From Amphiscolops sp. MND2022 (taxonomy: Eukaryota): DNA of 64,000 bases. Both the position numbers and the translations under genes were made by a program. Positions 6,946 through 64,000 of the stretch are shown here, piece by piece. Each line of letters begins with the position of its first letter. Position 1 is the stretch's first letter. The notes under the pieces are model-generated. The model had not been told where the DNA came from, did not search any database, and saw nothing but the letters and a program-made list of their open reading frames with translations. The DNA lies in contig OZ076409.1 in assembly GCA_964187785.1 (NCBI GenBank), positions 65,040,001 to 65,104,000 on the forward strand. Reading direction: 5' to 3'.

Positions 6946-9900
6946 ATGTCTTATATGATACCCCATCTGCATAATGGCTGGCAAGTTGATCAAGCCATTC
7001 TAGCTGAAGAAGATCGTGTAGTTGTGATTCGATTTGGTCATGATTGGGATCCTGTGTGCATGAAAATGGACGAAACTCTTCATAAGATTGTTGAGAAGGT
7101 CAAAGTGTTTGCTTGCATTTACGTCGTTGATATTACAGAGGTCAGTTGAACTTTAGTCACCCAGAGCTAAGAAAGTGAATTTAACGTTCATATTGAATAA
7201 CCCAAAGAATACATATTATTCTTAACATAAATAACTAAAAGCTAGATGTGCAGCTTGGTAATTTTTAGGCTTCCATTCAGTTCAATGACATTTAATTTTT
7301 CTGCCGTGTAATCTTTCTTGCCTAATGATGTTTGATTTTAGCCGTCGCGTTATGAAATAAACTCGATTATTATCGCATTTTTTTTCAATCCGGTCAAAGT
7401 GATCATTCTCATGCTGAATGCCAAATGTAAAAAATTTCTTAAACAGTTCGGAAGGCCCGGTCCTCCTTTTCAAATTTTGACTAAGAGTTTTTTTCGGCGC
7501 AGTGCGAATTTTTTTCAGATCACAAAAGGGTTTTCGTTTTGGTTCTTTGATGTTTCTGAAGTTAAAAAGGCTTTGGTTTTTTTGTATTTCTGGTAATAGA
7601 AAACAAAAAAGCACTTTTAAGCCCTAATGGTCCCCCTTTAGGTTTTTCGGTACTGTGAAATTAAGAATTTATGCAAAACTGAATCTTTGACGCTTTGAAA
7701 TACTTTTGCTCTTTTTGAGCCTTGAGTGGGGCGCCGAAATATGCCGGTCTCGGCTTGTTTTCTCTAAAGGAGACGATACAGACTGCAAAACTACTACTAC
7801 ATCATTCACAATCTTCAGAGTATGACCCATTCAGGCCTCTATATGTCTAAGTGACGTTAATTGGTTCAACTCAAAGAAGGATGTTTTTTAGTATGTTGAT
7901 TTTTTAATATGTTGATGGAAAATATAGTTTCACTGATTTCTGCATCTCGTTAATGGTTGGTTACTCTTGAAAGCCTGGCTCCCTTTTCTCGGAAGCTACA
8001 TTGTTGACTCGTTCGCTTTTTTATCCAAGATTTGTGATCGCTTTCCAATTTCTCAAGTCTTCTATGGATCGTCCTCATTTGAATAGTCTAGTACTTTGAC
8101 TCTAGGCCGAAAGACGACATTCGATTCTATACACTCCTCCATAATCCGATTAATGGACATGACTAAATTGTAAATGAACTTTCAAGACATGTACGCAAGG
8201 CTGCAATTAGTTTTAGTTTAATTGAATTAGTCATTGGCCCCTGAACGTTTCAGTGAACATGCCTATATGACTCATGTCAAATTAAAGTACATCTATTCTC
8301 TTTTGGTCAGTAAGGTGTAATGAATGTCTATCATTGTATGTATGTATGTATACCTTGTACATATAAATGTATCAATGGAAACGTATCCAAATACCATTTC
8401 ACGTCATGATTATGCTCCTACTCAATTCAATTGCTATAATCTTTTTTGTTTGCCTCCAGAATGATGCTGAGTCTTTTTTCCGATCTCACTCATGCATTAA
8501 TTTGAACAGTTCTTTCGTGTTACCTGGCGCTCCAAAATGGTATTGTGCAGAAAATCTTACTCCATTCTAGCATCCAATCTTTTTTGCATTAGCCATTGGC
8601 TTGATTTTCTCCTCATTCGTCACCGGCTGATGGAACCTGGTGTGTTTTCATCAGCCCATTGAACTGCAAAATGATGTGTTGGATGCAAATTGTGGGTTAT
8701 GTTGGCACCTTTTCATTTGCACGTGCATCTTAACAGGGTTAAGCCATCATCATCAGTGTTCCGCCACTGCTGCCACTTTTATTTCCGAAGTGTGTTTATT
8801 ATTAGAAAATGATGCCTACCTCCTCCTGCACCGTTGCTACGTTCATAGCTGCAAAAGAAAGTGGAATTTTTCATCGTATCGAGAAAGCCTCTGGCTGAGT
8901 TGTATATCTATACTTGGTGCTATGTGAATTGCGCTGTTTTTGCCTGGGAAAATTAACTTTCGTATGGATGACGTAAATTTGAATTGTTCTTAAGTAATGA
9001 TATGCTAGGATGAAGTTATGTTTGCTCTTTGATTTTAGCAAAATTTTTAAATGAGACTGATATACACGCACAGGAAACGCAGTTCGGATTACGTCTCCAG
9101 TAAACTTCTTCGTAATTATTATCGAGGAAAAATTCAAAGGAAGTATTAGATATAGCAGTTTTCATTTTTTTTCAATACCTGGATTTCAACTGATTTTTTC
9201 TGAGATAATTATGCTTGGAACCATTTGAGTGGAGCAAATTTTTGCGTCTTGAAAGGCTCCACTCAAATGATTCTAGACCTATTTATCGATCAGAAAAACT
9301 TTGGTTCAAAGCCAAGAACTTTGTATTTATTTTCGTTCACCTTCAGTGCTGCTATGTCTTCGATCTCACTCATGCATTGAGCAGTTTTTGTGCTATCTGT
9401 TGCTCTAAAGTGGTATTGTGCAGACAACGTAGTCAAAAATTATGGTCCCTAAGTTGCCGTGAATGTAAAAATGTCAAATTTTGACTATTTTCAAAACAAT
9501 TTTGCTAATTTTTCAATCAGTTTCTTCGGTAGTGGCCCTAATTGGAAAATAACTGCCTTCAGAGGGGTTGATTTCTGAATTTTAATTTAAGTTTCGAGAT
9601 TTTCGTGAAACACTTGATCGAAAGTTGCAACTAAGTCATCTGTCATTTTTCTCAACTGTTCCACTCAATTCTCACAGTGTTTCATTCAAGTCGACCAGTT
9701 TTGAGAACATTTTCATGTTTTGAAAAAAGTTTCATTTTTGAGTTATTTATGTCTGATTCGCTTCACAATCGTTTTCTCTGATTTTCCACTCAAAGCCTCT
9801 TACTGGTCTACTTGGGAAGCCAATTAACTAAACATTTATTTAGGCGATTTCCTGATTGTGTTGCACTTTCGAGAATTACTTATTCGAAAGTAACAACTTC

Positions 9901-12900
9901 ATTTTCGACCCGAAATAAATACCCCAGTTGAATAAGCATTGAAATATGGTCGTTTTGTATCTTCGTATTGCAATGCGATCAAGTAAGTAAATTTGAGTAG
10001 TCGTATCTTTGAGTAATTTGAGAAACTTTGTTTATTGTTCCCCAGTGTGCCCGTAAGGTGCATTAAAAGAGATTATTTTAACAAATGAGTTTCAGGGTAA
10101 TGCGATACATGTTAAATTAGAAAATGAATTACTACCCTATTAATGTAGTCAGCTTACAACAGGTGTACAGTACGTGTACTAATAATATGCGATATGCATG
10201 TAGATCGTTTCATTGATATTTCTTTTGGGTTCATGGGTCCTAGGATAACCATAGCCTCAGAAGGAGTGTTCTAAGAGGGAACGTTTATTTAGGCCCGAAA
10301 AACTGAGGACCGATAATGAAATTTTATCTGAGGTCCGAAAAAAGCTGTCCTAGAAATTCCAACAATTTCCAACTGTCCAACAAATTCCAAAAAAATAAAC
10401 TAAACAAACAACAGAAGGCTGAATTGGCTTAAATATTAAAGCACATTTGTGTTTACCGATCAAACAAATTCATGGGGCCTCACTTTCAATACTTTCTGGC
10501 CTCAACTAACACTAGCTTTGGGCCTCGCCCTTCTAAGAAATGCATACGAGTCCCAGTGATTCGACCACCCAATAACTTTCTATGATAATTCGCTGCCTGC
10601 CTCAAAGCATTCGTATGCATAATACAAAACTGAGTGAGATTCTTGAATTATGCATTGAATTTTTTGTAAAAGTTAAAGTTATCAAATTGCTGAAATTCTT
10701 ATTGGATGGTTAAATACAAACGTTAATGTTTCAGTGTGAAACATTCATTACTTTTATCTGGATTAAGATCAGGCGTTGGGAATAAATAATTTAATAAATA
10801 ATTCACAATAAATAAAATTGAATAATTTATTTTCTCTTGACAAAAATACAAAGAATTAATTCTATCTTAACAATCATTACGTACATTGACGCTATTATGA
10901 CGTTCACGCTGGCATGGCAGTTAATCACGGCGTGTAAATTCGTGTAATCCCGTGAATTTTATTAAATCAAATTGCGCCGTGAAATATCTTGATGCAAAAA
11001 CATTGAAAAATCTACAATATCTGTAGGTTAATTCCTCCTAATTGAATTGAAGTAGTTAAAATTCTGTGTTTTTGGTGAAAAAATTGCGAAATCGTTGAAT
11101 TGAAATACTTGAAAAACCGTGTTTTTTTTTTCGTGTTTTAGTGTGAAAAATCGTGAATTTGGCGTGATTTTCGTCATCTTAGCGTGACATTTTCAGCGTT
11201 ACTTATGCGAAAAATTTCCGTGATTAGCTGCCATGCCTGCGTTCATGTATTGTAACGTTAGTTTAGGCGCCAAAACCAAATAGACGGTCAATTTTGTTCA
11301 GTGGAATGAACTACGTTTTCAATGATTACAGGAACTAAACTGAACCTGTTCATCTTGGAAGTCATGTTTTTGTCAGAAAACTCGATGTTTTGGACATTAA
11401 TTTGGTAAATTCCATTGTTGCTAATGGACCTGCTGATAATTAAATCTTGACAAAATAATTTTTGGCACTAGATATTCCAGAAAAAAGTAAGTCAATTTAT
11501 TTTTATCATTTAGAATACAAAATTATTTATTATATGATAAAAATAATATTCAAATACAATATTCCCCACCCCTGATTAAGATGCTCAAAAGGTTATCAGT
11601 TCTGAAGCCTGGCAGGTTTCACCTCAATGATGAATTTTTTGGCGAGCAGAAACGTGTCGATGTATAATTCATCTATTGAGATTACTGTTCAAGGTCAGAC
11701 TTCATCATTTGAGGGCTTAACAGAGGTTAAGCCCTCAAATGATAAAGTCTGGCCTTGAGCAGTAATCTCAATCGATGAATTATACATCGACACGTTTAGA
11801 TAAAATTATACATCGACACGAGCTTAGATCAATGCAAATATGTTTTTTTGCAATTCATGACTTTGACTTTCCGATATTGAATCTGTCAGTCAGAGTTCAG
11901 TTTTTTATTTGTCGATTATTTCGGCAAAAATTTTAATATTCCTGCTTAAGAATGTTACTGTGACCGAGCCAGTCCGACTTTTTTGTTGTAAGAATATTGT
12001 TCAATAAGTTACCGTTTGTTCTCTTAGCAATAGACGAGCTGAAATTTTTGGCAATAGACAATAGTGTGTTGACTTGAGTAATTAATGGTTCCTTGAGAGC
12101 ATTTGAAGGCCTTACTCTAGCTTTATCTTTTGCTCAGATGTGAAGAAAGTGAAACTTTTTTACTTGAGTTTTTGCAAAAATCAGTAGATGAGATATTCAA
12201 AAATCCATCTAAAATTTGAAGGTTTACGTCTACTAACTTTTTCCTAATTGTAGAAGTGATATACTTTTTGATTTTTTGAAAAATTTTGCAATTGTAGGAA
12301 TATAATTGCGACTCGATCTTTATGGAGTGCCCCATAGTGCTATTATGTACCATGGGTCAATCTGAATACGACCCTAGCATTTAGTCACAAACTCTTCCTG
12401 TTAGAAAATTGATCTAGCAAGACACGTTATTAGATTGATTCCCTGCGGTATTTTGTTTAATTTTGAAGCAACACTATTTTCTACTTGTACCATGGTAATT
12501 GATACCAAAGGAACTAGGTTACACCCCTTCAATGCTGTGAGACCTACCATCTACTTAAGTCTCAAGGCCGCCGGCTGGTTTTTGCATGTTGACTGTAGTG
12601 TTCTTTTTTAAGCCTTAAGGCATTTTTGGTGCATTTTTAATCCTTTTTTCCTCGAGAAACCGTTTTTGGATCTCCAGTTACCTCATCTTTTCTTTTAGGT
12701 TCCTGACTTCAACAAAATGTACGAGCTCTATGATCCATGCACTGTCATGTTCTTCTACAGAAACAAACACATAATGATTGACTTGGGAACGGGTAACAAC
12801 AACAAAATAAACTGGGCCATTGAGAACAAGCAAGAATTCATCGACATCATAGAAACTGTGTACAGAGGTGCGCGCAAAGGCCGCGGTCTTGTCATATCCC

Positions 12901-12932
12901 CCAAAGATTATTCTACCAAGTACCGATACTGA
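6946..12932 (+). CDS. TXNL4A: Thioredoxin-like protein 4A (Dim1, U5 snRNP 15 kDa); exons 6946-7140 and 12699-12932; 142 aa
   Basis: MSYMIPHLHNGWQVDQAILAEEDRVVVIRFGHDWDPVC...VDITE | VPDFNKMYELYDPCTVMFFYRNKHIMIDLGTGNNNKINW...SPKDYSTKYRY. GT-AG phase-0 intron 7141-12698. Confidence 0.97.
10770..11574. mobile_element. hAT-like MITE in the TXNL4A intron
   Basis: TIRs CAGGCGTTGGGAATA / TATTCCCCACCCCTG. Perfect 8-bp TSD ATTAAGAT (10762-10769, 11575-11582). Confidence 0.85.
10909..11239. mobile_element. hAT-like MITE nested in the previous element
   Basis: 22-bp TIRs CTGGCATGGCAGTTAATCACGG / CCGTGATTAGCTGCCATGCCTG. 8-bp TSD CGTTCACG / CGTTCATG. Confidence 0.85.
11650..11797. repeat. Near-perfect 148-bp palindrome (72-bp arms, AGAG loop)
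   Basis: AAACGTGTCGATGTATAATTCATC...GAGGGCTTAAC-AGAG-GTTAAGCCCTC...GATGAATTATACATCGACACGTTT, with few mismatches. Confidence 0.92.
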
Positions 12933-13520: not shown

Positions 13521-16500
13521 ATGATGTCTCAACCGTGTCTGGACCTGCGTCAAGACGTGAGTGTGGCCATTGACCTGCTGCATAAACTGAAGAGAAACAA
13601 CGAGATCAGTGGTCAAAAAGCCGATGCCCTCATCTCAGTTCTAGAGAGTCCCTTTTTCAACGCAGTCCGCGAAGTGTACGAACATGTGTACCAGACTGTA
13701 GATATCCAGGGAAACGAAGAGGTTAGTTAGTTAGTGCTAAAATTGTGCCCCTATTGCGTTTCTTATTGAATCATTTCATAAGAGTATATTGCATGCTGCG
13801 CATATACAAGTATTCAACTCTGGTTAGATTTGATTGGTTACGTTGACAACGGGAACAGAAGGCGGGGAGGGTGTTGTAACAAAGAAGGCCTAGTCATACC
13901 GCCAGTGCTGTAACAACAGGATACCGGTGGGCTTAAACCAGTCTACTAGAAAGTGAAATCAGTCAAAGCTGTTTTTTTAGTCGGCGCTTTTCTTTAGAAA
14001 AGAGTCGACTATAGTCATGGCTTTTCGTCAGTGTTTTTTAAGAACACCTGAACTGACCAAAATAGTTCTACCAAAAGTTCTACAAAATTTTCAGAAGACT
14101 CCAAAATGTACCTGTTGGCCCAAGGAACAACCAAAAAGGTTTCCCGCGCAACATACAATACCGGACGAGACCAAAGGGTCCATTTTTTCGGCACTGTGCG
14201 ACTTTTTTCCCCACGAAAGGCCCCCTTCAATTTTTTGGAGTTTTGCAACAGAATGGATGTTGAAAAATCCCAAAGGGTCCTCCCTTTCAGTTTTTTTCGG
14301 CATTGTGAGACTTTTCAAAAAAAATTTTCATAAAAGTAGTCCCAATTCACCAATACTTGGAAATTTTGAAGTCCTTTTGCTATTTTTGAGCCTTGGATAT
14401 GGCGCCGACTTGGGCCGTTCCCGGCTTGTTAATGGAAGCAGTTGAGTTTCTAAATTCCACATCTTTTGCTACCGAGCTCTCAGAAGTTTAATGTGTATTT
14501 TGCTGTTAAGTACAATTCAGTATCAACCAGTATCTTGAATTCGTTTCATTAACAAGACTTAAAGTCATAAGAATTTGCATCATTTTCAAATGGTTTTGAG
14601 TGCTGTGACATGTCCTCGATCAACAATACTTACATGTACGACTGGTAACATGGTCGGATTTGAGAAAAAAATCGGAATTCAATAAAAAATCTTTTCATGC
14701 TGCTGGTACTGGCGCTACTTACACACTGAAGTTTGTTGACCGCCATTCCGTAAAAAAATTAAATGAAAAAGTACTGAAAATTTATAGTCGCTTGAAATGT
14801 CTCGGAAAGTAAACATCCGAAATTTCTTTGCGAAGAGCTTGGTAGAATCTTCTAAATTGAAACAGTAGAGTTACATGTACCTTTATTATTTATGCAAAGC
14901 TTTTGTGCTACTTCAGCTGTTGGCTAGTTTTCATTACCGTATTGATGTCGTCACGTTTGACCTTTAATGCTTTTCATTTTCCCTTCCTGGTGACAGACAG
15001 GTCCGGTTCAGTAATGGTCAAGCGTCGTTCTCATCTATTCATTTTCCATGTTCTCGTAGACAGTGGGTATCGGATCAGATTCAATTACCATTCCATTAGT
15101 TGCACTGTCATGGAAATTGATATATGATGCTGCTTGTATGTAAATTACACAAGTATTATTTTCGCCTCAATCAATAAAAACATTCAATATTTGTGCTACG
15201 GTTCGTGAGATATGCTTGGCTCCAGGATTTCAGGCATAGTCACAGTGGGGGTTTTGTCGGAGTGATGCTTGGAATAGAACTTGAAACAACAGGTATTTTT
15301 AAAGTTGTTTTAAACAGTTTAACATGATATGTTTTTCTAAACCCCAATAGTCATAAATGTTTGAAACAAACTTAATTTCTCCCCATCTTTGATTTATGTT
15401 AAAGAACGGAAACATAAGGTTAACCGTGGGACCTTCCGTTGAACTAAATTCATTCGTACACCGTCTGAATAATAATGCTTCTTTGTTCCAAAAAATGTTG
15501 AGTGTTGCAAAACTTTTTTGTATTGAAAAAGCCAACTATTTGCGTGGCTGTTTTCAGGTAAGAGCCAACGCAACGGCAAAAGCGACAGTGGCCGCATTTG
15601 CTGCTAGCGAGGGCCATGCTCACCCCAGAGTAGTGCAACTGCCGGTCACTGACGAGGGATTCGGATTCAACATCATGGGAGGCAAGGAGCAGAACTCACC
15701 CATCTACATCAGCAGGATCATTCCCAATGGCATCGCGGCCAGGTACGGGGGGCTGCGGCGGGGAGACCAACTGCTCAGTGTGAATGGGGTGTCTGTCGAA
15801 GGAGAGAGTCACACTGCCGCCGTACAATTGTTGAAAGATGCTACAGGTTTGTCGGTTGTTAAATTATTATGCCTCTTCCTATCTAATGCATACGAGGGGA
15901 GGAAAATTTTGTAATTTCACAAAATAAGCACTATCCCGCAACAACAATCAAAAAGGTCAAAAAATGGTTTCGTAGCGTGTATTTATGAAGAATGGTGCAT
16001 TCATTCTCAATACGGGAGGTTTGACTCTTTGGGATTACCGTTAATAAGTCGGGAGATATCGTGGTATTTTATTGGTCTTCTATGGAAGCTAGGGAAACGC
16101 TTCTGTTGACCAAAACTGAACGAGTTTTCACTAATTGATCGTTCGCTGAGGGCTTCATTGGCATTCAAATGTGAATCCAAAAACTCATTTCCGCTTCCTA
16201 CAAAGCTTTTAGTTCACGATTTGTTTAGATGCTTTCTTTCTGAATTATCGTCTCGAAAATCAAAAACGAACTTCACGTCTGTAACTACACGATGCTCCGC
16301 ACAAAAAAACTATTAAACTCGCACAAAAAACTATTACGCTAAGTCACAACTCTTAATCTATTACAAAAGCGGATGGATGTGCATCCTACTTTGATTTGGA
16401 TCCAATTTTCCGATCAGAGAAAAAATACGTGATATTTGTTTCCTTCGGAAGTCCACCAGCGTTAAGGAAAACATGGCGTCTTCTGGTATCGCTACTGTGT

Positions 16501-17392
16501 ACTACCTCAATTTTTAGGAACCATTCAAGTTTATTTTGAAATCAATGACCCCGTAACTTTTTTGAATGACCTCATTAATCAAGAAGAGTGGTATGAATCC
16601 GAAATCATGGTGGAAAGAGCGCCAAAGCCATATCCCAGCTCTAAAGTTGGATTGAATGTCTTGGGCATTCTTCCATCGCTGAGTAGCATCGCTAACCTCT
16701 AGGAGTATTATCGCGAATACGTATCACGAGCTTTTTGAAAACTTCGTTTTGAGCAATGAAGATTTGGTACGTTTTGTTTTTGGAATGGCAGAATGAATCC
16801 CAGAACTGAAGTTTCCTATCTCTTTTGAATTGTTTAAATTCTGTTACCTGTCTTCCTTTGTTGCAATTTACCCAAAAATTCATTTTCCGCCCCTGATGTG
16901 TTGTTGCTGAACTAATTACTAAGTTTGTTTTTTTTTCACAAAGTTCTGAAAATGAATGTTTTTGGGAAATCTGTTTGCAATTGGAATGTTTACTTCCGGA
17001 AGTTTTCTATGAATTGATTTTATCCCGAAAACTTATGTGTGGAATAGATAAACTTCTTTAAATTAGTCAGCCAATTTTTTCAACAGGTCCCCGTGATTTT
17101 TCAAATTTCACACACAGCCGTTTATCCTTCGATGTTTTGGCCTTGATTGAACTTTTTGAATTGTTTGAATAATTGAAGCGCAATAGTGTATGAAGATGAA
17201 GTGCCTGTATTATTGCGCTGTGTTGTTGCAGGTGTTGTGAAACTTATCGTTCGGTACACGCCTAAAGTGTTGGAAGATATGGAAGCCAAGTTCGAGCGCC
17301 AGAGACACAGATCAACGCAGCAGACTCTTCAGTACCAGCAACAACAACGCACCTTAGATAGGAATTCCATGCCTCGCAACAAAGGACACTGA
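13521..17392 (+). CDS. LIN7: Protein lin-7 homolog (L27 + PDZ); exons 13521-13721, 15558-15846, 17232-17392; about 216 aa
   Basis: L27 domain [14 protein letters not shown]...[71 protein letters not shown]...[34 protein letters not shown] introns with consistent phases. Confidence 0.96.
13972..14430 (+). mobile_element. Non-autonomous Helentron/DINE-1-like element (complete copy, LIN7 intron 1)
   Basis: 5' T-run + AGTCGGCGC sub-TIR with adjacent partial inverted repeat. 3' GGCGCCGACT sub-TIR + GCCG-TTCC-CGGC hairpin + TTGTT. No TSD seen. Confidence 0.7.
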
Positions 17393-18707: not shown

Positions 18708-21700
18708 ATGGGTGACTCATCAGAGACAACGGGTGTCACAGGAGGTCCCACGGAGAACCACCATCCACCAGGCACAGTGTCACATAAACAATTTTCAAAC
18801 ACTTTTCGACAAATTAGGAGGCTGGGAGTACGAGGATTCGCATCCCGCGCTCGGCCAAATTTTTAATGCTTACAAATGTTTAAAAGGAGACCAAAGGATC
18901 ACCACATTGGAGTTTTTTGGTACTTAGCGACTTTTTTGAGAAAATTTTGGTCCAATTTTTGAGTAATCCTGAGATCTAACGTGTACCCAAATGTGTCAGA
19001 GGGCCCGCTTTTGAATTTTTAACTTGGATAAAAAACTTAATGATATGACAGGGTACCCCCTTGGATTTTTTGGCTCGCTGCAATTTTTTCAAAATGTTTT
19101 TCATTTCACTAGGGTGTCTTTCGGTTTTCAAAAAGTTTTCGGTTAGAATGTGTTTTCCTCGCCCAAAAGGTCTTTAATTTGCGTTTGTCGACATTGTGAC
19201 TTGAATTCATTTTTATTTGTTGTAAGTTGGGGAAAAGTTTTTTTAACCTGAAAGGTTCCTCTTTTGACTTTTTTCGGCATTGTAAGACTTAATAGAATTG
19301 TTTACCACCAATTAGTTTCACCAGTGCCGTAATTCGCATTCAACCAGTATCTTTTCAAATCGAACTATAATACCGTTTCTGATGTAACGCGTATAACGAT
19401 GAAAATACTCTATATCCGAATTATTAACGTTATTCTTACCGGATCGAAGACATGGGAAGTACGTTTTTCTAATTGCCATTTCGGAACTAGTTTTCATTTT
19501 CGTAGACTTTTTAGTTCAAAGTTTCCCGATACCTTTTTTGTCAAACAATCGAGGCTGGAAGGTGTCCGATCGTTTCTAAACGCGTATTAACAGAATATAC
19601 GCAAAATATTGCAGAGTAACTGCGCCTCTTGAGGTTTAGAATGGTGAATCGTTTAGCTGATGCATTTAGCGCACTATAAAGTCCCTATACTAGTGTTTTG
19701 TCTTGACACAATTGATTTTTAGTCCGAGTTTTTGAAGAAAATGCACGACTCTTACAGTGACAAGTTTTTTTTCTTCAGTTCAACGCGATCGGTCCACTTT
19801 TTCCAACATCATCAACTTGAACTACGGACGTCCAAAACATCTTCCAAACGCCAGAACCTCGTCCAAAACAAAAACATCGACGTCCAGAACCTCGAAAACA
19901 GGATTCCCTTTGGTGTTTTCCACTCGGATTTTTTTCGGCACTGTGCGACTTTTTTTGAATTTTTTTTGGATTCCACCAAAGGGTCTCCCCTTCGTTTGTT
20001 TCGATATTTTGCAACACAAATGGATGTCAAAAATCCCAAAGAGTCCCCCTTTCACATTTTTCGGCACTGTGGCACTTCAAAAATCTCATTAAAAAAATTG
20101 TTCGGAAAACATACTGAGGATCCCCTCTTTGGCGTTCTTCACTCGGATTTTTTTCGGCTCTGTGCGACTTTTTTTGAAATTTTTTGGATTGCACCAAAGG
20201 TTCTATCTTCCTTTGTTTCGATATTTCGCAACACCAGGAATGTCAAAAAATCCCAAAGGGTCCCCCTTTTACATTTTTTGGCACTGTGACACTGTTCAAA
20301 AAACTTTAAATTTTTTCCGGAAATTTTTCAAAATCTCCCAAGGGTCCCCTCCAATTTTTGCAAACCAACTGGAGTTTCACAAAGCCCAAAGCCCCCCCCC
20401 CTTTTTACAATTTTGAGCCTTAGATATAGCGCCGCCTTTGGCCGTTCCCGGCTTGTTACATATTAAGCTGTCCGGCTCACTTAGACTTCTTTTCAAAAAT
20501 CCAATAATTTCGTGCAGACCGACAAACTAATTGAGTCCTTTGACCCTTTCATTATTTTCTTAGCGCACAACATTTTTGAAATATGGAAATACGGGTGTTT
20601 CTCGCAGAGTAGTTGTTGGTTGGTTTGATTAAATGGGTCAATGGTAATATACAGCAACATGAAGTTATTTAATTTTGGTGACACTGGGCAGGCACTTCGA
20701 TCCCGACGCCTTCAGTGGCATCTAACAGTCACCAGCAAAGCAACGACTCCAACCACAGTGCAGCTAACACAGCCGCCGCTGCCACAGCTGACCCGGACCA
20801 AGAGGCTGCCCAGGAGCTAGAGTCTGAACTGTCCAAACTCAAGGTAATCCTCGCCATCTCACCTTATATAACACCTATATAGCTTCATAGCTCAACCAAT
20901 CTGTGGATTGAAATACTCAAACCAAACTTGGATTGTTATCAAACTAGTTTGGCTGACATTTTCTGAATAGACGATCGAGTCTCGATACGAGTTTTACCCA
21001 AATGTAAAAAGTTGCACAAAACACCGGAGTATTCATCTGTGCAAATTTCTGCAAATTGTGACACCGAAAAAATTCAAGTGACAGAAGCAAAGCTATTTTA
21101 GGGGCTGAGCTATGGAAATGATCTTCTATTCAGAGCTAACGTTTTTAGGAAAGTACAACTGTGCAGTAATTAGTGGAATCGGTTACTTGCTAATTTTCGA
21201 AACCTTTTCGATAAAGGTACACTCTGGGAAATGTTGAACAATGGGTTTATATTGGACTTCACTAAATGCTAGTAAGATTATAACATCGCTTTCACATACC
21301 ATTATTTTTATCAACAATGACAATTTTCAGTGAACAATAGCACGTTTGTATGAAATCTCTATGTTTTTCTTGAACCTTTACTCTTGAAGCCTATCTTTAC
21401 TATTTTCGTTGAAATTTCTGGGTAATTGCCAAATTTTCAAAAATTTCACTCATAAAATAGGTGTCTCTTTGGTCTCTTTATCACGCGTAATAAATTACTT
21501 TGCCCATTTTAAAACTATTTTTAGTCGGCTATTTTTTTAAGAACAGAGCCGACAATAGTCATGGCTTTTCGTCAGTTTTTTTCGATGAACATGAACTGTC
21601 CAAAATAGTTCTACCGGAAGTTCTTCAATTTTGACAATGTCCCTTTTGGCAATCTACATACTACATTTGACTGTAAAAAGTGCTACGGAGTCCCCTTCGA

Positions 21701-24700
21701 CAATAACACAACCCATACCGAATTTAACGCAAACCGGATATAACGAATACCGGAAATAACGTTTCTTGGAGGCTTTTTCAATGATGAGGTCAAAGCAGTA
21801 AGTTTTTGTATGGGTACATGAATGAAGGGCAGCACTAGTTTTCGTTTCAAAAGATTTTATAATTGATATTTTGGTGTTGAAATCTAGAATGCGAAATGAG
21901 ATGTAAAATTGGTGATTGGTTTCAGGACAAATTACAGAGTGAAAGAGAAGCAGTAGGAGACAAGACGCTGAACGACACAGCTTCGACCCTAGAAAACCTC
22001 ACTCGAATCAGACTGAAGCGTTAGTTTCCATTTTGTTACTTTAATCTGAGTTCCAACAAGAAATCAATGGTATAGGATGCAATATCCTGAAGTTTGATTC
22101 ATCAAAACTTGAACAGAAACAATTGATTTCGATTAGAAACAGTTGTATACTGCTATTTTCTTGAAAAATAAAATCGGTATTGCGAACTTGTTTGCATTAT
22201 CATTTCCATCTTTTCCAGATATTTCAGATATTTTTGCACGAAAAGGTCAGATCCTGGATTATTTTACCGTGTTATTACTTACACTTGCGATAAGCAAGTG
22301 TTATGGGAAAGTGCGGGTGCTTTTTTTCCGGGCGACAACTCTCTCGTTTCAGCCCGCAAGTCGCATAGTTCAGGCAAGTATTCCGGAGCAGATGGTTCTC
22401 ACTTTTTTTGGCACTATGAGACCCCCCTTTTCGGCTTTGTGAGATTTTTCGAAAATTTATTAATGTTCCCGAAGAGTCCTCCCTTCATTTTTTTGATATT
22501 TTGCAACAGAACGAATGTTAAAAAATTCCGAAGGGTCCCCTTCATTTTTTTTGAAAATTTGCAACAGAATGGATGTTAAAAAATCTCAAAGGCCCTTCTT
22601 ACAGTTTTTGGCATTGTGAGATTTTTCAAAAGGAATATTTTTCGTTTTGAAATTAGGTTTTCTCAGGCCCAGCACGCTATATCCGATTTTTGATTTATTT
22701 TGAAGAACGGTGTTTTTTCTATGCGACTTTTAAACTTTGTTTTCATCGAAGTCCCTCCTCAATTTTTACCAGATACGAAACGTTTTGCGAGCGTTAAGGA
22801 CTCCTCAAGGTTTTCGGCACTATGCGACTTACCGGAGACCATCAAAAATTTTAGAAACATTTTTTCCTCAATTTTCTTTTTTAAAAGGTTTTCCGTTTAG
22901 AGAGATGAGTTTTTTGCTGTTTTCAGTTGGGGAAGAATGGTTTTCGAGACTCATGCATATCCCTTCGGGTATTTTTTTGCGCTGTAAATTGATGAAATTT
23001 TAATATCCTTTTACCTTTGGTTCTCCGTATGATATTGCTTATTTGGTTTTCTTCAAAAGTTCGCAAGTGTTTGCGGAGCACGGCTTCGCCTCTGTGTAAT
23101 AAAAAGTGAGAACAACTGAGCCCAAAAGTTTTGTTCCTACATAGGTACCAATGATTCATCTTTGTTATGAGTATAAGTCCCCATATTGGCCTTTGTTGTT
23201 CCGATTTTTCGTTGAATAACACATTAAAGCCCCATTTTGTACATAGTAAATCGGAATAGCTGGCTATTGTTTCAGCGAGACGTACGTTAAATGGTCACGC
23301 AGCGGCCATCTACACAGTGTCGTGGCGACCTGAGTCGTGTGAGCTAGTGAGTGGGTCTCAGGATGGGAAGTTGTTGATCTGGGACACTCACACCAACAAC
23401 AAGATCAACATCATCACCCTCAAGTGTCCCTGGGTCATGAGCAGTGGCTTCGCGCCCTCGGGCAGTCTGGTGGCCAGTGGGGGTCACGACAACGCAGTCT
23501 CTGTCTACTCTCTCAAGGCAGAAGCCTGTCCTGAGAAGCCCATCCAGCAGCTCACAGACCATAACGGTAGGCATACATTCATACAACTGACCAGTTTCTG
23601 ACCAGCGCTAGCTCATTATAATCAAGCGATTGTGATCATTGATTATCATCAAGCTATCATCAAAATTGATTGAAAGTATTTTAGTAACAAGCTGGGAACG
23701 GCATAAGTCGGAGCCATATCTAAGGCTCAAAAATAGCAAAAGAACATGAAAGTCAAAAAAACCCAAAGTATCAAACTCACAAAAAGAGTATCAAACTCAT
23801 GAAAAACCCAAATGACCGAACTGGCGCGCTAAAATGGGGGACCCTTTCGCATTTTTTAACATCCATTGTTGCAAAACATCAAAAAATTGAAGGGGGCATC
23901 CTTTGGTGAAGGAAAAATTTCCAAAAAGTCTCACAATGCCAAAAAAACTGAAAGGGGGGACCCTTTAGTTAAAAGTTGAATTTTCTTGAACATTATTATA
24001 CAATCATAGTATTGATAGTATTTTAACGTTTAGATATGAAAATGTTCAAGAAGGACAAAAAATAAGCCTAATCAGCTCTTCAAGTTTCCGCCCTTAAGTA
24101 CAGGACCAAGATAGGCAAGTTTATCGCTTTCGTTAATTGTGTTCCGATGAACATTTGAACGCGTCTTCCTATTGGAAAAAATACGATACGATATCCCTAC
24201 TTTCAGTTATATACAACCGTGTTAGGTTCTTCAGATATGATGTAATTTGATGATGCGTCATTTCTTCGACACCAGCCGGCATCAAATCCATTTCAATTAA
24301 CCAATTATAGCCTTTGATTAATGCATTTTCCACCGATTTATATTTAGTTCTTGTTCGGTTCATAGATACTGGTAGAAAACCTTTTTTAAATTCAATTTGG
24401 GATCATATAATTTTGTAGAACTTTGAAGAACTATTTTGATCAGTTCGTGTGGATTGAAAAAAAGTCACTATAATAGTCGCGGTTCACTTCATGGAGCACC
24501 GACTAAAAATAGATTAAAATCAGCAGAACTTGGCCACTTTTGACGTGGCTTAGTTAATTTTTTTCTGCTGTTCGTTCTGAGCACTGAACAATCGTAATCC
24601 GTCTCATCGCTTGAGGCTTGGTTTATTTGAAGACTAAACACTAATTCAGAATTGAAACCCGAAAGCTTGTTTTCTGATCCAAATTTTGAATTTATCATTG

Positions 24701-27700
24701 AAATTATTCAATTTTCTGCATCCTTATTTTTAATCAATTTAGTTTTGGCTATAGTAATTTTAATCGGATATTTTTAGTCGGTGCTTTTCTAGGGAAAAGT
24801 GCCCGACTCTTACAGTGGCTAGTTTTTTTTTCGTCAGACCACAGACCTCATCGCGTATGTACCACTTTTTACAGACTTCACTCCCGCTCACATGTACTCG
24901 TCAGTACTCGGTTTACGGTGAACCCAGCGGTCACGGGTTCGAGTCCTTGCTTTAGCCAGAAACTTTTTCGAGCAATTTTTTTCGGCACTGTGCGACTTTC
25001 AATTTTTTTTGGCACTGTGCGACTTTTTTTCGAAATTTTTTTTGTCGCCAAAGGGCCCCCTTCAAGTTTTTTGATATTTTGCAGCAAACTGAAGTTTCAA
25101 AAAGCCCAAAAGGTCCCCCTTTCTAGTTTTTTGGCACTATGAGACTGTTTCAAAAATCTCATTTTTCGTTTTTCTTCGAAAATTTTTATATTTTTTAAAT
25201 GTCTCCAAAGGGTCCCCCCTCAACTTTTTTGATATTTTGCAACAAACTGGATTTTCAAAAAGTCGAAAGGGTCCCCCCTTTAACAAATTTTTAAAAAATT
25301 GCGCTTTTTTGAGCCTTAGATATAGCGCCGACTTTAGACGTTCCCGTCTTATCAAATTCAAAGCCAACCCTCGCTTTGATATCGTTTTGAATTTTATGAT
25401 GCAACATATCCTATGATGTGGGGCAGAGGTGTGACAGCGAGAGCGATGGCGGTAGCGTTGACGACAATTCAGCATTAATTAGCGATAGCGATAGTTAGCG
25501 ACGAATTAGGGCGTTAGCGAAGATTTTCATTCGCTAAACAGAATGCAATGCCGTTAAGGTAAGAACGATTGAAAATATGATACTGCTGAAAAATATTCAG
25601 TGTGGCCGGCAATATGCAGAACCCAAGGCGAACTAGATTTTAAAACTCCGAAATTTAAATGAATATCTTGAAAATCAGTTTTTTAATTAGCGATTAGCGA
25701 ACCCATTTTGTTGTAGCGATAGCGATGAAATCAAGCCATTAGCGATGTTAGCGATTAGCGATAAAAATGGTTAGCGATCACACTTCTGATGTGGGGGTCC
25801 TATTCTACTGGAGTTCATTGGGGTAATAGGCAGGGGAGGTTGGCATATTTTTCAAGAGGCTGTTTTTGGTTTATGACTTCTGTGAAATGGTGTTGGCAGT
25901 AGCAGTACCAAAACAGCCCGCATTGATTGAAAACACCATGAAATAGAACTGAAATCCATTTTGACACAATCGAAGTCCTCTGAAACATTTAAAGCATAGA
26001 TTACCGCATTCAGCCGATTTGAAAAACGCACGAATTTCTCGATAAATATTTCCTTACTTTTAAGTTCTTTCTCAGTTATAACCTTTCTAGTATCTTAAAA
26101 GTAACAATGATCTTCGTTCTTTAATCAAAACATTGCTATTCTTCTCCAGTCAACTAGGAAAAGTTATAACATGGTGAAGTGGTTAGAGTATACGGCCTGA
26201 ACTGGGGCGGTATCAGGTTCGAATCTCAACTCACTATTGTTGGGCGTTTTGCAACTCCTTCATCTCTAGCTTAGTCGTATGGTCATGACAAAACGTAACG
26301 CAGTCGGCGGAGTTCAAGCAGACCATTTCTTGACCATTTGTCTGCATACAATAGGGTACCAAAAAGCTACATATACTTGATTCCAAATCTCAAATCGCCA
26401 TAGTATTTTCATAATCAGAAGATACAAAAGTGATAGCAGCAAAACCTCCTCAAATTTCAATCAGAATTACATTTTGAACTCACACAAAAGTTAGCAAGAA
26501 AGCTCCAGATCAATTTCTCACTTTAAAATTTAACAGTTTTTCTGAAAACGCCCTCCTTAGGAATTCACAGCGCAAAAATACAATTTTTTGGCTGTTCATT
26601 TTTTAGGAAATCATTTTCAGAATAATTGTTCTAATGAAAGTCAAAGAACTGTGTCAAGGCGGCAAAAATGATTGAAGGTAGTTTTTCTTTTGAACAGTAG
26701 TTTCTTGGAGATTGCTTAATAAAGTTCAAAAAGCTCCAAAATTCCTCGAAATACAATGTGATAGAACTTTTTTTCGATTTCAAAACAAATATTACTTTTG
26801 TAATTCTGATCAAACACCTAATGACTCCTGTTAGAGACTTTTGTGCAAATGAATATATTAAAAGTTATTGCGCTCTGAAAATTTTTCGTTAGCCAAATCG
26901 ACTGTCTAGCTTTTCGGTACCCTAGTGTATATGATGGTGAATTCCCAAATAACATTAGAGCAAATAACATAAAAACCATTAGTTTCAAATAACATAAAAA
27001 TGAAATGAGTTTCACTAAACATTAAAATAAAATGGTTTACGAGAAAGTTTTAGTGGTCAAAAGATTGACTGAAAACTGTGAAAATTACAGATAAAATTTT
27101 GAGTTCGATTGTTTAACCGGGTATTCGGTTTTATTTTTGTTATTTGAAACTATTTTTGTTTTTGTTATTTGCTCTTATGTTATTTGGTACGTAATCGCAT
27201 ATGATACCATAGCTTGCTATGGGAAGGTAGTATTCGAAAGGGCGCCGACTTAGAAAAGCAGAATTGCTTGTTCGGCGTTCACCCCGCGGTAATAGAGAAA
27301 TTATTAACTTTATTTCTTCCAAGTAAACTGCGCTGCTATAGCGAAGTGCACCAATTGTGTCGGTATCTGTATTATAGCACGTCAGTTAAGAACAACAAGA
27401 CTACTACCATCTTTATTCGACCTCTTAGTTCTTCCTCAAACGGTGTTAGTCTTGGATTGACTCAATTTTTGCTGAAATTGAATGATATTTATGGTGAAGT
27501 GACCATTGGAAAACAATATAGTTGTGTTTATTCAGTTCAGTACGCAGCATACAAGTCAATCTGATTTTATAATTGTGTAGTACGGTTGTGGTGCGCTTTA
27601 AAAATGCCCATCTATAAATATAGTGTATGGTTTAATCAGAAAAGTGAATCTTGCGTAACGAATCACGGCAATTTTGTAAAATTGAAACATGTTTGACTTC

Positions 27701-30700: not shown

Positions 30701-33032
30701 CGACAATAACATCGCCCATCCCCTTTGGATTTTTTTGGGAAACCGGATATAACGTTTCTTGGCGAATTTTTCAATGATACAAAAGCCCCCCCCCTTGTGA
30801 GTTTTAAGATATTTAGAGTTTATACGAAATCATTTGAAGCCAAAGGGTCCCTCCTTTCGATTTTCTTCGGTATTGTGAGACGTTATTCTTAACTTAACCG
30901 AACATTTGTTTTATTAATACTTTGTTTAAGCCTTTTTTGGCTCTGTGCCTTTTTTTCCGAAACTTTCATTTGGTCAAAGGGTCCCTCCGGCTTGCATAGC
31001 TGATTTCGGCTTGAGAAAAGGTAATTGTTCGAGCTGAAAGTTCCTTTTTTGGCACTCTGATACTTTTCTGAAAAAAATCAATTTTTTTTCGAAAAATGGA
31101 TTTTTTGTTTCCAGTTAGGAAAAATGTGGTTTCCGAGTTAAGTGGTCCGGAATATAAAATGAAAAAATCATGAATTTTGGAGAAACTTTGTGTATGTGAA
31201 TATTTTTGACTCCGTAGTGCCGAATTTTTATTTTCTGCTGTGATTAAGTATCTATTAAATGTTCCACTGGTTGAAGGCATTTTGTTTTAGGCTTTGTTTC
31301 TTCCATTCACTTCATTGACGACCAGCAATTGATCTGTAGCTCAGGAGACAACTCGTCTGCTCTGTGGAATTGTGAGGACAACGTCAAATTAACATCTTAT
31401 GAAGGTACGTCTCCTCCGCATTCATCTCAGAAACACTGTTGACTATGTCATCGTCATTAATGTCTGCGTTGGCAACTCAACTCGAGTGTGCTTCATTATG
31501 GAATTGGAAAATTCAAAAGACACTTGCTGTAAGGACGTGCTAAGCAAATCACGCTGAGTGCAGAACTTCTGATAGTGACGTTTCAGGAGTGATTTTTGAG
31601 GAGTTTCATTTATCACTCATTCATTTGGTATTCTAAAACTCAAGTTTCAATCAAACTGCCTGATTTCACATCAGGAAGTAATATTATGCATTGTAAATAT
31701 TCAACTCTAATAGAAAATGTCAACAAAAATTGCTGAAACTTTCAGTGTTTTGAGTGATGTTCACTGCATTCTTTAAAAAAATAGTTGCAAGAAGTCTTTT
31801 TGATAATGAAAGATAGGATTTTTGATATTTATTTGTAAGTTTCTGCGCAGTCCAAAATTCTGATCACCATAAGCCTCTCTAAAAACGTTCGTTTTCTTTT
31901 TTTGCTTGGGTTGAAGTATTTTTTGCTTAACCAGAAGTTCGTATTTCACAGAGAACTATGCTTAAAGAGACCTAAAAAGATGAAAATCCAAATTTCTCTG
32001 AATTTTTGAAAACTACATTTATCGGAACCAATAACATTTGAGAACTTGTCATATGAACAGAATGTTTTCCGGAAAATCCTTGGGCTACAAAAATAATAGC
32101 TGGTATAATTTCTCTATGCTGGCTTGAGTGTGAATAGTGGTTTGTTGATTCAGGTCACACGGCTGAAGTGATGGGAGTGGCTGCGTCGAGTGACAACACC
32201 ATCTTCGTCAGTGGCTCCTGTGACAGGACGGCCAAACTGTGGGATGTGCGCGAGAAAAGTGCCAGACAGACGTTCACTGGACACGAGCTGGACATCAACT
32301 CCATCTGCATGTTCCCCTCTGACCGCGCTTTCGTCACCGGCTCCGACGACAACTCCTGCAGACTATTTGACATCCGCTCAGACCAGGCATGTCATCACAT
32401 TGATATCTTCCAAAAATATTTTTTGAAAAAACTGTGGGTTTCATATAAGCTGAGCGTTTTGGTTCTTTCTGCGTGAAGGGAAAGTTAACAGTGCGTCTTG
32501 GATGCTTCATGCAATGAGTTATATAGCCAATTTTGGTTATTGAATTTCTATGAAACTCATTATTTTTGACCGTTTATAATTGGATTCTAACCACTTCGGG
32601 TTCAGACAGGTAACTTTAAAAAGAATAGCTTGAAATTGAGGCTTCTTTTTTTAAAGAAAACCGTTTCAGTTGTCAGTAAAATTTTGAAGGTTGTTTTATA
32701 TCGTAGAAATAAAATCATGACATTTTTTGAACTGGCGACCCAGAACTTTGGTAAAGATAATTGTTGACGTGCCTGTCATGCGTTACCAGTCGGTGGCTTC
32801 GTACACTCAGCTGAATCTCAACTTCGGAATCTCCTCCGTGTGCTTCTCGAAGAGCGGGAGACTTCTCTTCGTTGCATGTGACTTTGATGTCCTCATCTGG
32901 GACACGCTGAAGAGTCTGAAAGTGGGCATCCTGTCTGGCCACGAAGCCAGGGTCTCCTGTCTGGGCGTGAACAGCGAAGGCACCGCCGTTTGTTCAGGCT
33001 CTTGGGACGCCAAGCTCAAGGTGTGGAACTGA
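18708..33032 (+). CDS. GNB: Divergent heterotrimeric G-protein beta subunit (WD40); exons 18708-18771 (tentative), 20692-20843, 21926-22019, 23276-23566, 31291-31404, 32154-32386, 32790-33032; about 396 aa
   Basis: Coiled coil [126 protein letters not shown]. Exons total 1191 nt in one frame. Introns 1 and 6 are GC-AG. Paralogue (GNB1-4 versus GNB5) unresolved. Confidence 0.92.
19716..20457 (+). mobile_element. Helentron/DINE-1-like copy inside predicted G-beta intron 1
   Basis: TTTTTAGTCCG start, family internal modules, end GCGCCGCCTTTGGCCGTTCCCGGCTTGTT. Confidence 0.65.
23686..24509 (-). mobile_element. Helentron/DINE-1-like copy, interrupted by unrelated sequence at about 23970-24390
   Basis: Reverse-complement termini AACAAGCTGGGAACGGCATAAGTCGG and GCACCGACTAAAAA. 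Confidence 0.6.
24771..25350 (+). mobile_element. Helentron/DINE-1-like copy with tRNA-like module
   Basis: Family termini. Internal GGGTTCGAGTCCTTGCTTTAGCCA. Nearly identical to 63364-63971. Confidence 0.7.
25424..25788. mobile_element. hAT-like MITE with (T)TAGCGA subterminal repeats
   Basis: TIRs CAGAGGTGTGA / TCACACTTCTG. Perfect 8-bp TSD ATGTGGGG (25416-25423, 25789-25796). Confidence 0.85.
26168..26236 (+). repeat. Degenerate tRNA-derived sequence (SINE head or tRNA pseudogene)
   Basis: A-box-like TGGTGAAGTGG and B-box GGTTCGAATCT at tRNA spacing. No intact cloverleaf. Confidence 0.45.
28535..30530 (+). mobile_element. Four-level nested stack of Helentron/DINE-1-like elements in G-beta intron 4
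   Basis: 5' termini at 28535, 28690, 28746 and 28806. 3' termini at about 29297, 29691 and 30287. Outer bodies resume after each 3' end. Confidence 0.72.
30000..30125 (+). repeat. Minisatellite, about 21-23 bp (GTTCGGATATAACGTTTTCAAA) x about 6
   Basis: Directly visible tandem units inside a Helentron-like copy. Confidence 0.85.
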
Positions 33033-51954: not shown

Positions 51955-52344
51955 AAAGTTCACAGATGCCCGAAAACAAAGTTTTTATTTTTAAAAAGAG
52001 TACGGAACAATATCTAAAACCAAAATTAAAAACTTTGGGTTAAAATGTCCTCCCGTCGGTTTTCTCTTTCAGTCTCTCGTGTTTATCAGTATATAAAGCA
52101 GGGGTACGGAAAACAGAGTTCAAATATACCTTTTCCGAGTGCAACCCAAATGAATTTTTATTTTAAAAAAACTGTCCTATACCGTTTTCCAATCAGTAAA
52201 TCATTTTCTAGAAACAAAAGCAGAGACAGGGGTACCGCAAATGTAATTGCCATAATATTCTCTAGCTTCCATAAATAATTTTCATGGATGACAGCTGCCC
52301 ATAAATCATTTCCATAATCTCACAAAAATAAATAATGGCAATTA

Positions 52345-52922
52345 TTAGTCGGCGCTTCATGAAGTGAAACGCGACTATTATAGTGACTTTTTTTTCTATC
52401 CACACGAACTGACCAAAATAGTCCTTAAAAGTTGTACAAAATATCATTACACAAAATTGCACCATTTGGCCTAGCGAACTAAACCAAAAAGGTTTTTCCT
52501 GTTTTTCCGCATACAATACCATACCGGGCGAGACCAAAGGGTCCCCCCTTTCAATTTTTTCGACACTGTGAGACTTTTTTTCGGAAAATAAAAAATTTCC
52601 CCCTTCAATTTTTTAATGTTTTGCGACAAAATGGATGTTGAAAAACCCCAAAGGGTCCCTTTGCCTTTCGGTTTTTCGGCATTGTGTGACTTTTTTTTCT
52701 AAAATTTTTTTTCTCTCCAAAGGGTTCTCCCTTCAATTTCTCCGATGTTTTACAACAGATTGGGTGTTTAAAAATCCCAAAGGGTCCCTTTTTTCGGTGC
52801 GCCATTCGGTCCATTTTTTTTTGGTTTTTCGATTTTCGAGTACTGTAAATTGACACTTGGAAGTCCTTTTGCTATTTTTGAGCCTTGGATATGGCGCCGA
52901 CTTGGGCCGGTCCCGGCTTGTT
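52345..52922 (+). mobile_element. Helentron/DINE-1-like copy
   Basis: TTAGTCGGCGCTTCATGAAGTGAAACGCGACTA start. GGCGCCGACTTGGGCCGGTCCCGGCTTGTT end. Confidence 0.68.
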
Positions 52923-54389
52923 TTTTGAATTACAAGGAATAATACACAAAACAGAACATGGAGACAAAAAGTACATGTACAATTGTACCAGCGTAGAAAA
53001 TAACTCAGCGTTCGAAAAAGTTTTGTTGACGATTAGAAAAAGTTCGGCTTCAAGGTGCATGGGCAACAACTTTTGACAACTAACCGCTAACAGCCAGACT
53101 GGATGTTGGGAAAATAATGTTGCCATAATTCTCAGAAATCCATAAATTACTCCTTTGTCCAAAAATATTTTTTTCTGGAGGCCCAAAATATTTCCATAAT
53201 GAATTATTTTTGCAGTACCCCTGAGCAGAGGTGATCGGCTGCTTGAATATAGTATTTTCTACAATATTTATGGATCTAAAACGGAGTTTTTGCGTTGGAC
53301 GTACATCGCTTTCCTAAACAAGTCAAAGTCCCAACAGAAACTTGCAAATGATCTTTCTAGAGTTTTTGTATTAGCACCATTTGTTGAGCTGTATTCCTGA
53401 AAAAAACAATACTACACCAAAAAAACTGAATCTCTGGTACCTGATTCGAATAAAAAATTTAGTAACAGGTGTAAGGACCTAGATCTGCATCTCCTCTAAT
53501 ATCGAAGGCACATCTAGAATCTCTCTTTGTTAAGTTTGTTTGAGACCCATCCGGTCGATCACCGGAATTGATGGCAAGTGGACTTACCCGACCCAAAACT
53601 ACTTTCTCTCAATCGCAAACATCCTACAATGTTTTGTGTTTCAGGAAATACTCTATCATTGATTGCAGAATTGATTTCTCCATTTATCTTTTTGCATAAC
53701 GTTCATCAGTGAATCCCTTCCTTGGGGAAACCTTAGGTTCTTTTCTTCTGATAAACATTCCATCGATTCCAAAAGCCTCTCAGATCTAACATTCCCACTT
53801 TTTCGGATATTTTTGATGATTATTTGATGAGAAACATTACGACAATTTTTGCTTTGAGATAATTAATTACGGATACCGAGTGAAGTAACCTAGCGGAATT
53901 ACTATTTTGACTTTGAAGCTCGAAGCCCTACCTGTGAGAAAACAAGAGGTTCAGTAAACCGAAAATAGTGATCAAAATGGTCAAATTAGTTTCATAATAT
54001 TTTGGACTAATGTTATTTCTCATTAAAAAAGAGGCTCACTGGCACTGCGATTATTTTCGAGTCCTATTAAAATACGCCTTTGGAAAAACTTGGACACATG
54101 CAAAACGGAAATTTGCTTGAAAACTGAACTTATCAAAAAAATTTTCAGGCATGTTTGTGCAAGTAACAAAATTGTTCTTTATTCTTGCAAAGTTATCGTA
54201 GACATTCTAATCATGTCTGTGGAAATTTTGTCAGAAAAAGAAGTTATGTATGGTTGCCTGAGACTGGAGCGCGATCAGTGGTGACTGTTTTTTGCAGCCA
54301 ATTTTGCTTCAATCAGAGTCATTTTTCCAGAATGAATATTTGTTATTGTTTTGTGTAGTTTCTTTGTTATATATTCACAAAAGGATGAC

Positions 54390-55574: not shown

Positions 55575-56011
55575 CAGAGGTGTAAAAATTTATATTGTAT
55601 TGCAATATGTTGCAATTAAATACAAATAATATATTTATTTAGTTGGAGCAAAAATACAATATATTTATTGAAAGAAGGCAAATATTGTTATAGCTCTGCA
55701 ATTTATTGCGCAAAAAAATTATTGCAAAATAGAAATAAAATTCCATTTAGTATGCATTTTAAACGGACTAGAAGTGAAAGACTATCAAGGGAGAAATTCA
55801 CTAAGCTGTTCGCTAATTTCGAGAGTGTAGTCTTTCTTTATACAAATAAACAACATTGGGTTGTTTGCCTTGTGAATGAATGTTTCTCTGCCCAATGTTT
55901 TTCTAAAATTTTGCAGGACATTAAATACCATATATTTATTGCTGAAATTGAATCAAACAATATAATATTTTTTTTGAAAAATACATTTAAATACAATATT
56001 TCACACCCCTG
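55575..56011. mobile_element. hAT-like MITE
   Basis: TIRs CAGAGGTGTAAAAAT / ATTTCACACCCCTG. Perfect 8-bp TSD CTTACATT (55567-55574, 56012-56019). Confidence 0.85.
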
Positions 56012-63363: not shown

Positions 63364-63971
63364 TTTTTAGTCGGCGCTTTTCTAGGGAAAATTGCCCGAC
63401 TCTTACAGTGGCTAGTTTTTTTTCTTTTTTTTTCGTCAGACCACAGACCTCATCGCATATGTACCACTTTTTACAGACTTCACTCTCGCTCACATGTACT
63501 TGTCAGTACTTGGTTTACGGTGAACCCAGCGGTCACGGGTTCGAGTCCTTGCTTTAGCCAGAAACTTTGTCGAGCAGTTTTTTCGGCACTGTGCGACTCT
63601 TTCATTTTTTTCGGCACTGTGCGACTTTTTTTCGAAATTTTTTTGTCGCCAAAGGGCCCCACCTTCAAGTTTTTTGATATTTTGCAACAAACTGAAGTTT
63701 CAAAAAATCCAAAGGGTCCCCCCTTTCTAGTTTTTCGGCACTATGAGACTGTTTCAAAAATCTCATTTTTCGTTTTTTTTTTCGAAAATTTTTCCAAAAA
63801 ATTTTTTATATTTTTTAAATGTCTCCAAAGGGCCCCCTCAACTTTTTGTGATATTTTGCAACAGACTGGATTTTCAAAAAGTCGAAAGGGTCCCCCTTTT
63901 AACAAATTTAAAAAATTGCACTTTTTTGAGCCTTAGATATAGCGCCGACTTTAGACGTTCCCGTCTTGTTT
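63364..63971 (+). mobile_element. Helentron/DINE-1-like copy with tRNA-like module
   Basis: Family termini. Nearly identical to 24771-25350. Confidence 0.7.
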
Positions 63972-64000
63972 TCTCTAGTTGTCAGTAACAATCCACGTGC

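Follow-up and report, generated by a model that had tools for sequence, protein, structure and literature searches.

The DNA analysed here, a window of 64,000 nucleotides from the genome of Amphiscolops sp. MND2022, carries on its plus strand a G-beta-like gene of seven exons, which together encode 396 amino acids with no internal stop. The coding part of exon 1 (18708-18771) starts with the ATG at 18708 and ends with the codons for HHPP and one further base. Exon 2 lies at 20692-20843 and exons 3 to 6 at 21926-22019, 23276-23566, 31291-31404 and 32154-32386, all on the plus strand; exon 7, through the stop codon, occupies 32790-33032. Two genes precede it on the same strand at approximately 6946-12932 and 13522-17392. 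From their translations we take them to be a DIM1/TXNL4A-like gene and a LIN7-like PDZ gene, respectively, and their introns appear to be GT-AG.

Over one exon, the encoded protein shares 88% identity with a G-beta-like protein of Symsagittifera roscoffensis. The cluster of the second match includes a Convolutriloba macropyga protein, and the host is therefore an acoel, though a different one from S. roscoffensis. A second G-beta model of S. roscoffensis (P0006) has a duplicated end of 53 amino acids, possibly an artefact of assembly or annotation. Spliced alignment with the S. roscoffensis protein recovered all six introns, with introns 1 and 6 as GC-AG, and placed intron 1 exactly at 18772-20691; a GC donor was penalized by one point only in this alignment. 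The join of 18771 to 20692, described as in frame by a first-pass annotation of the window, yields the open 396-residue product, and the orthologous proteins are continuous over it. The motif ENHHPPGT runs uninterrupted across the join in all five full-length orthologous proteins. As had also been noted, exon 2 offers no start codon of its own: it contains no Met, and an in-frame stop lies just before it.

Ends and splice sites of intron 1

Intron 1 is a GC-AG intron of 1920 nt in phase 1 on the plus strand. Its junctions fall within two 8-mers, here interpreted as the copies of a target-site duplication. The left copy ACCAGGCA (18767-18774, plus strand) carries the donor CAG/GC and the right copy GGCAGGCA (20687-20694, plus strand) the acceptor CAG/G, where the slash marks the splice junction. 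Directly inside these copies lie the arms of a terminal inverted repeat, the left arm CAGTGTCACATAAA at 18775-18788 on the plus strand and the right arm at 20673-20686 on the minus strand. Both arms begin with CAG, and they match at all of the first nine positions and at 12 of 14 overall. The flanking 8-mers match at six of eight positions, with both mismatches on the intronic side, and a 4-bp parse of the duplication can be made as well. The longest exact direct repeat across the junctions is the 7-nt CAGGCAC; it runs into the left arm, and this overlap permits alternative parsings of the intron ends. All of these coordinates, the match values of the arms and the placement of the 8-mer differences in the intronic copy had been given in the first-pass annotation and were obtained again upon recomputation. 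Within the element, a degenerate fragment of a common genomic repeat was located at 18825-18948 on the plus strand.

For comparison, a sample of 259 well-supported introns was used, which covers three gene families only (6 G-beta, 58 myosin and 195 dynein introns). The acceptor of intron 1, earlier described as having no pyrimidine tract, contains four pyrimidines at positions -15 to -4, where the median is eight, and values of four or fewer occurred in 6 of the 259 introns. A T-rich stretch within and just 5' of the right arm may represent a displaced pyrimidine tract. The inverted ends were subjected to two chance tests. In the first, ends taken from 64 well-supported introns were paired crosswise, with the 8-bp duplication fixed in register with both junctions; none of the 4032 pairs attained the 12/14 of intron 1, the best value being 11/14 (n = 3). 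When YAG starts were demanded, none of 20,000 shuffled pairs attained 11/13. Such ends with at least 11/13 matches were present in two of the 259 sampled introns, intron 1 and one myosin intron.

These features make it likely that intron 1 is a non-autonomous hAT insertion in the first coding exon of the G-beta-like gene, with predicted exact splicing. Transposition of hAT elements proceeds through an 8-bp staggered cut. A hAT transposase would have inserted the element into exon 1 with such a cut, upon which the left target copy would have served as donor CAG/GC and the right copy as acceptor CAG/G, with splicing from the first. Exact removal is predicted because the duplicated 8-bp target holds CAG-GC: with the donor in the left copy and the acceptor in the right, the element and one target length are removed and the message is left unchanged. 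Afterwards two bases of the right copy, both intronic, would have drifted, the interior would have decayed and a Helentron-like repeat would have inserted.

Intron 1 might also have been gained by double-strand-break repair, a route that has been proposed for Daphnia, or by a local duplication of CAG-GC, with inverted ends that are due to chance or were later selected for splice-site pairing. The 7-nt exact direct repeat across the junctions, the weak donor and acceptor and the lack of any family member of intron 1 among the loci found would fit such an origin. We nevertheless regard it as highly improbable, since arms of 12/14 in register were seen in none of the 4032 control pairs, the CAG starts of the arms lie precisely 8 nt from the start of the repeat, and intact young examples occur in the same genome (see below).

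Absence of introns 1 and 6 from a related locus

A metagenome scan, in which 56 pattern matches led to a single locus (L046), provided a genomic orthologue of the G-beta-like gene from a related acoel. Its protein is the closest by identity (82%). The locus contains four introns of 58-78 nt each at the positions of introns 2-5, which are GT-AG in Amphiscolops; neither of the GC-AG introns, 1 and 6, is present. The peptide ENHHPPG is identical in L046 and in the five full-length orthologous proteins, and its codons differ from those of L046 at five third positions with no amino-acid change. A lineage-specific gain by transposition, as put forward in the first-pass annotation, is thus supported by one outgroup in which intron 1 is missing and introns 2-5 are kept. 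The gain is deduced from the transposon signature together with this single genomic outgroup; a protein tree of the orthologues did not resolve their branching order.

The same pattern would be expected if intron 1 were old and had been lost in the L046 lineage. Alternatively, the GC site could be unused, either in favour of an upstream GT or because the allele is defective. The short introns of L046 point to genome compaction, the protein tree does not settle the branching, and three GT sites upstream (18712, 18733 and 18745) share the phase of the GC donor. Yet L046 has retained all four GT-AG introns, and those absent are exactly the two with transposon-like ends. Splicing from the upstream GT sites would moreover delete ENHHPP, a peptide whose codons change only silently, and the gene is intact apart from the intron 1 region. 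Both versions of this explanation are accordingly considered very unlikely, and a gain of intron 1 by hAT insertion is preferred.

hAT-type elements and introns elsewhere in the genome

A search for siblings of intron 1 in the genome gave no second copy. DNA queries with both intron ends returned the window itself and one internal repeat piece, but no other terminus. Three end patterns gave 51, 12 and 13 genome matches vs 37, 6 and 23 for their controls, and a partner arm of 12/14 within 1.5 kb was present in none of the 28, 11 and 12 other pattern loci fetched. One candidate sibling, L008, was dropped as it has no arm of at least 10/14. The published introner criterion asks for a family of four or more similar introns spread over unrelated genes, and no intron similar to intron 1 was found. 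As no sibling was found, its membership in a specific hAT family is unproven. Because the genome search ignores common words and requires near-exact matching, an extinct and decayed family of intron 1 may have escaped it. The check for a family of terminal inverted repeats that the first-pass annotation had suggested came out partly against its proposal: no family with the exact ends of intron 1 was detected. Families with other CAGTG and CAGG ends are abundant.

The hAT dimerisation domain gave 150 scored matches among 2215 candidates. Of 20 such loci fetched, 13 were flanked by YAG-start inverted repeats and an 8-bp duplication, which was perfect (8/8) in 12 of them; none of the 20 had ends matching intron 1. 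Across 853 pairs of YAG arms in 1.75 Mb, a sample that is enriched for hAT-type loci by the manner of its selection, 33 exact duplications of 8 bp lay beside the arms, one of 5 bp and none of 6, 7 or 9 bp.

A young case of the same geometry was encountered in a de novo scan of a locus that had been selected for another reason. In this WD40 gene, named POC1-like from its translation, a young hAT-type element of 1270 nt with CAGTGATG ends and an 8/8 duplication is predicted to form a GT-AG intron (L042, 1700-2977, minus strand; G000:C4, near 77.67 Mb). The donor lies in one target copy and the acceptor in the other, with offsets matching those of intron 1, and excision of the element restores the frame HANWVRVA/RFAPDSR. 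Sequence related to this element was found in L100, L130, L148, L199 and L202. The arrangement proposed earlier for intron 1, in which the target duplication supplies both splice sites, recurs in this gene with a perfect duplication.

The observations on duplication length bear on the alternative parsing of intron 1. Read as a CMC/Chapaev-like element, it would have the arms CACAGTGTCAC / CCCAGTGTCAC, with termini as assigned to such elements, and an exact 4-bp CAGG repeat; another parse outside hAT has GC-start arms and a 2-bp AG repeat. The 4-bp version, with arms of 13/16, needs one mismatch fewer than the hAT parse and is compatible with the 7-nt exact repeat. The 1.75 Mb, however, contained 25 pairs with CAC/CCC starts and a 4-bp repeat, of which one was intron 1 itself, two were TTAA cases and the 22 others were judged by eye to be palindromic flanks or inner arms of common repeats. 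YAG arms, by contrast, peak clearly at 8-bp repeats, and the POC1-like case is in the exact hAT register. An origin from another superfamily thus has little probability. A Transib element, characterized by CACAGTG and a 5-bp duplication, was ruled out since the 5-mers are out of register.

Other elements were recorded along the way. The window contains hAT-type MITEs of other families at 10770-11574, 25424-25788, 52227-53223, 55575-56011 and 48142/51171-51917, with 7/8 or 8/8 duplications and located inside introns or between genes. A piggyBac-like element with CCC-start inverted repeats and a TTAA duplication was seen in myosin region C1 (9311-9845) and in L131 (1886-2420).

Intron 6 of the G-beta-like gene (32387-32789, plus strand) is a GC-AG intron of 403 nt with inverted arms of 12/14 at 32384-32397 and 32762-32775. 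The left arm begins at the last CAG of the exon and contains the donor. Overlooked in the first-pass annotation, intron 6 is probably a second, older hAT-derived intron that took its donor from the end of the element. Used as DNA query, it matched only itself. Inverted-repeat scores of at least 9 were obtained for four of eight GC introns vs none of 56 GT introns (Fisher p = 1e-4, intron 1 included). The left end CAGGCATGYTCAA, which intron 6 shares with introns of myosin genes, occurred 79 times in comparison to 21 times for the control, and 26 of the 71 sites examined resembled exon ends vs 94 of 2160 control CAG sites.

Eight CAGGCATGYTCAA elements had a partner arm of 13/13. Five of them looked free, four with an 8/8 and one with a 7/8 duplication, and three lay in coding-like DNA, with duplications of 5/8 (L128), 6/8 (L151) and 7/8 (L152). 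Dispersed copies with the same ends constitute a family, designated CAGGCATG, with 8/8 duplications in the free copies L103, L108, L138 and L157. A free copy used as query gave 874 candidates, of which 40 were scored; of 30 loci, both arms were present in 18, and the duplication matched at six or more of eight positions in 14. Members or relatives of this family form frame-preserving introns in L111, L132, L151 and L152, and their likeness to one another and to the myosin C11 case lies in the shared arms. The youngest, L152 (G000:C10, near 55.97 Mb), has the subterminal sequence common to the free copies, a 7/8 duplication and an open joined frame. In all four, the AG end lies 11 nt past the right arm, so that the CAG of the element substitutes for the host NAG at zero length cost. 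Of 13 hand-picked joins, 6 were fully open over about 100 codons, and a Pfam domain spans the join in one of eight tested (L132, domain positions 1-43 and 45-70 on the two sides). Two further family members are located within open frames. In L209 one codon would be added, the acceptor being at the end of the duplication, and L181 has a GT donor, possibly through CpG decay of the arm.

Several hAT families appear to make introns throughout this genome by two routes. In the first, both splice sites would come from the target, as in intron 1 and the POC1-like gene. In the second, the donor CAG/GCATG would be supplied by the element end, and a NAG of the host directly after the right target copy would act as the acceptor, as in intron 6 and others.

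The frequency of such introns was estimated from the sample of 259. It was derived from strict alignment runs, from which weakly supported calls had been removed (42 of 106 and 69 of 264) and two long gaps skipped; a dynein reference built from paralogues was excluded from the counts. GT-AG ends were present in 246 introns and GC donors in 13, or about 11 once two likely mis-calls, myosin C3a-451 and dynein d12b-2260, are set aside. GC donors usually make up about 1% of animal introns, and the sample lies above this value. Four sampled introns had a CAG/GCATG donor, all four with inverted ends. Five introns were hAT-like: introns 1 and 6, myosin C11-130, myosin C10a-652, out of register by 4 nt, and dynein d1b-1347, with 9/13 only. 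The positions of the last three are uninterrupted in 7 of 10, 4 of 10 and 13 of 16 paralogues, respectively. Myosin C11-171 scored 12.5 and fell below the support filter. Leaving out intron 1, the rate of hAT-like introns is about 4/258. It dropped as data grew, the dynein sample containing one candidate (9/13) in 195 introns, and an early estimate from the myosins of about 5% hAT-made introns was abandoned on account of the dynein sample.

On balance, it seems somewhat more probable than the contrary that several hAT families have contributed introns over a long term in this lineage. All stages would then be present in one genome, from free MITEs through young introns with intact duplications to the eroded introns 1 and 6. 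Such introns would amount to about 1-2% of the total (hundreds to a few thousand), would explain part of the raised rate of GC donors and would mostly be hidden from similarity screens. Because hAT-made introns would be mostly invisible to these screens, transposon-made introns of animals would, if this holds, be under-counted.

Relation to known introners and the nested repeat

Intron 1 probably behaves as a hAT introner that has co-opted both splice sites, a kind already catalogued. The entries in supplementary file 8 of Gozashti et al. (2025; PMC12130899) include two hAT families with the mechanism 'co-opt both' and an 8 in the TSD-detection columns, family 1 of Styela clava and family 14 of Panicum virgatum, with 6 and 12 copies, respectively. 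As far as these entries go, intron 1 agrees with them in the DNA/hAT class with terminal inverted repeats and in the co-option of both sites, and Styela is likewise an animal. The Styela and Panicum families, however, are small and recent and were detected by similarity between introns, whereas for intron 1 no similar copy was found and its paired ends are the only mark. In 12 of the 14 supplements of that study, ten acoel and xenacoelomorph names gave no match, and the lineage appears to lie outside the published introner screen. Literature listings and the beginnings of abstracts, among which subscription papers were few, contained no report of introners in acoels.

Introners of Micromonas, Symbiodinium and Florenciella are described by Gozashti et al. 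(2022; PMC9860276) as MITE-like, with terminal inverted repeats and target-site duplications, splice sites that are either carried or co-opted, and GC donors. Median introner lengths there range from 30 to 654 nt, and the hosts are mostly protists and fungi, with two animal groups only. In contrast to these algal and dinoflagellate introners, intron 1 measures 1.9 kb, contains a nested repeat and resides in an animal with a genome of 1.07 Gb. MITE-derived introns with terminal inverted repeats, target-site duplications and species-specific positions are known from the animal Fritillaria borealis, according to a review (PMC11282704) of Henriet et al. (2019). Intron 1 resembles them in its animal host, inverted repeats and putative duplication. 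As summarized in that review, most Fritillaria introns depart from the canonical ends and require a modified spliceosome, whereas the acoel introns end in GC-AG or GT-AG.

The case bears on the origin of new animal introns, as introners have so far been reported in few animal groups. If true, it would add an early-branching bilaterian lineage in which every stage between mobile element and fixed intron occurs within one genome. A detection rule could moreover be built on inverted ends that keep register with the splice sites, one that catches old cases missed by similarity screens.

The interior of intron 1 contains a nested repeat at about 19716-20457 on the plus strand, with an internal tandem of about 217 nt. 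Helentrons are recognized by subterminal inverted repeats, a 3' hairpin and T-rich insertion sites. The nested copy shows the first two of these features and has T-rich ends, in agreement with the nested Helentron-like insertion postulated before. The repeat shares features with Helentron/DINE-1-like non-autonomous elements and is a passenger of the intron, not its maker. It is very abundant, with 63 3' ends in 596 kb. Further copies in the window include those at 24770-25358 and 63364-63975; they are often in tandem, and some contain a motif like a tRNA B-box (near 24937). Between positions 58000 and 62000, the window displays a strong AT skew of -0.36 to -0.39.
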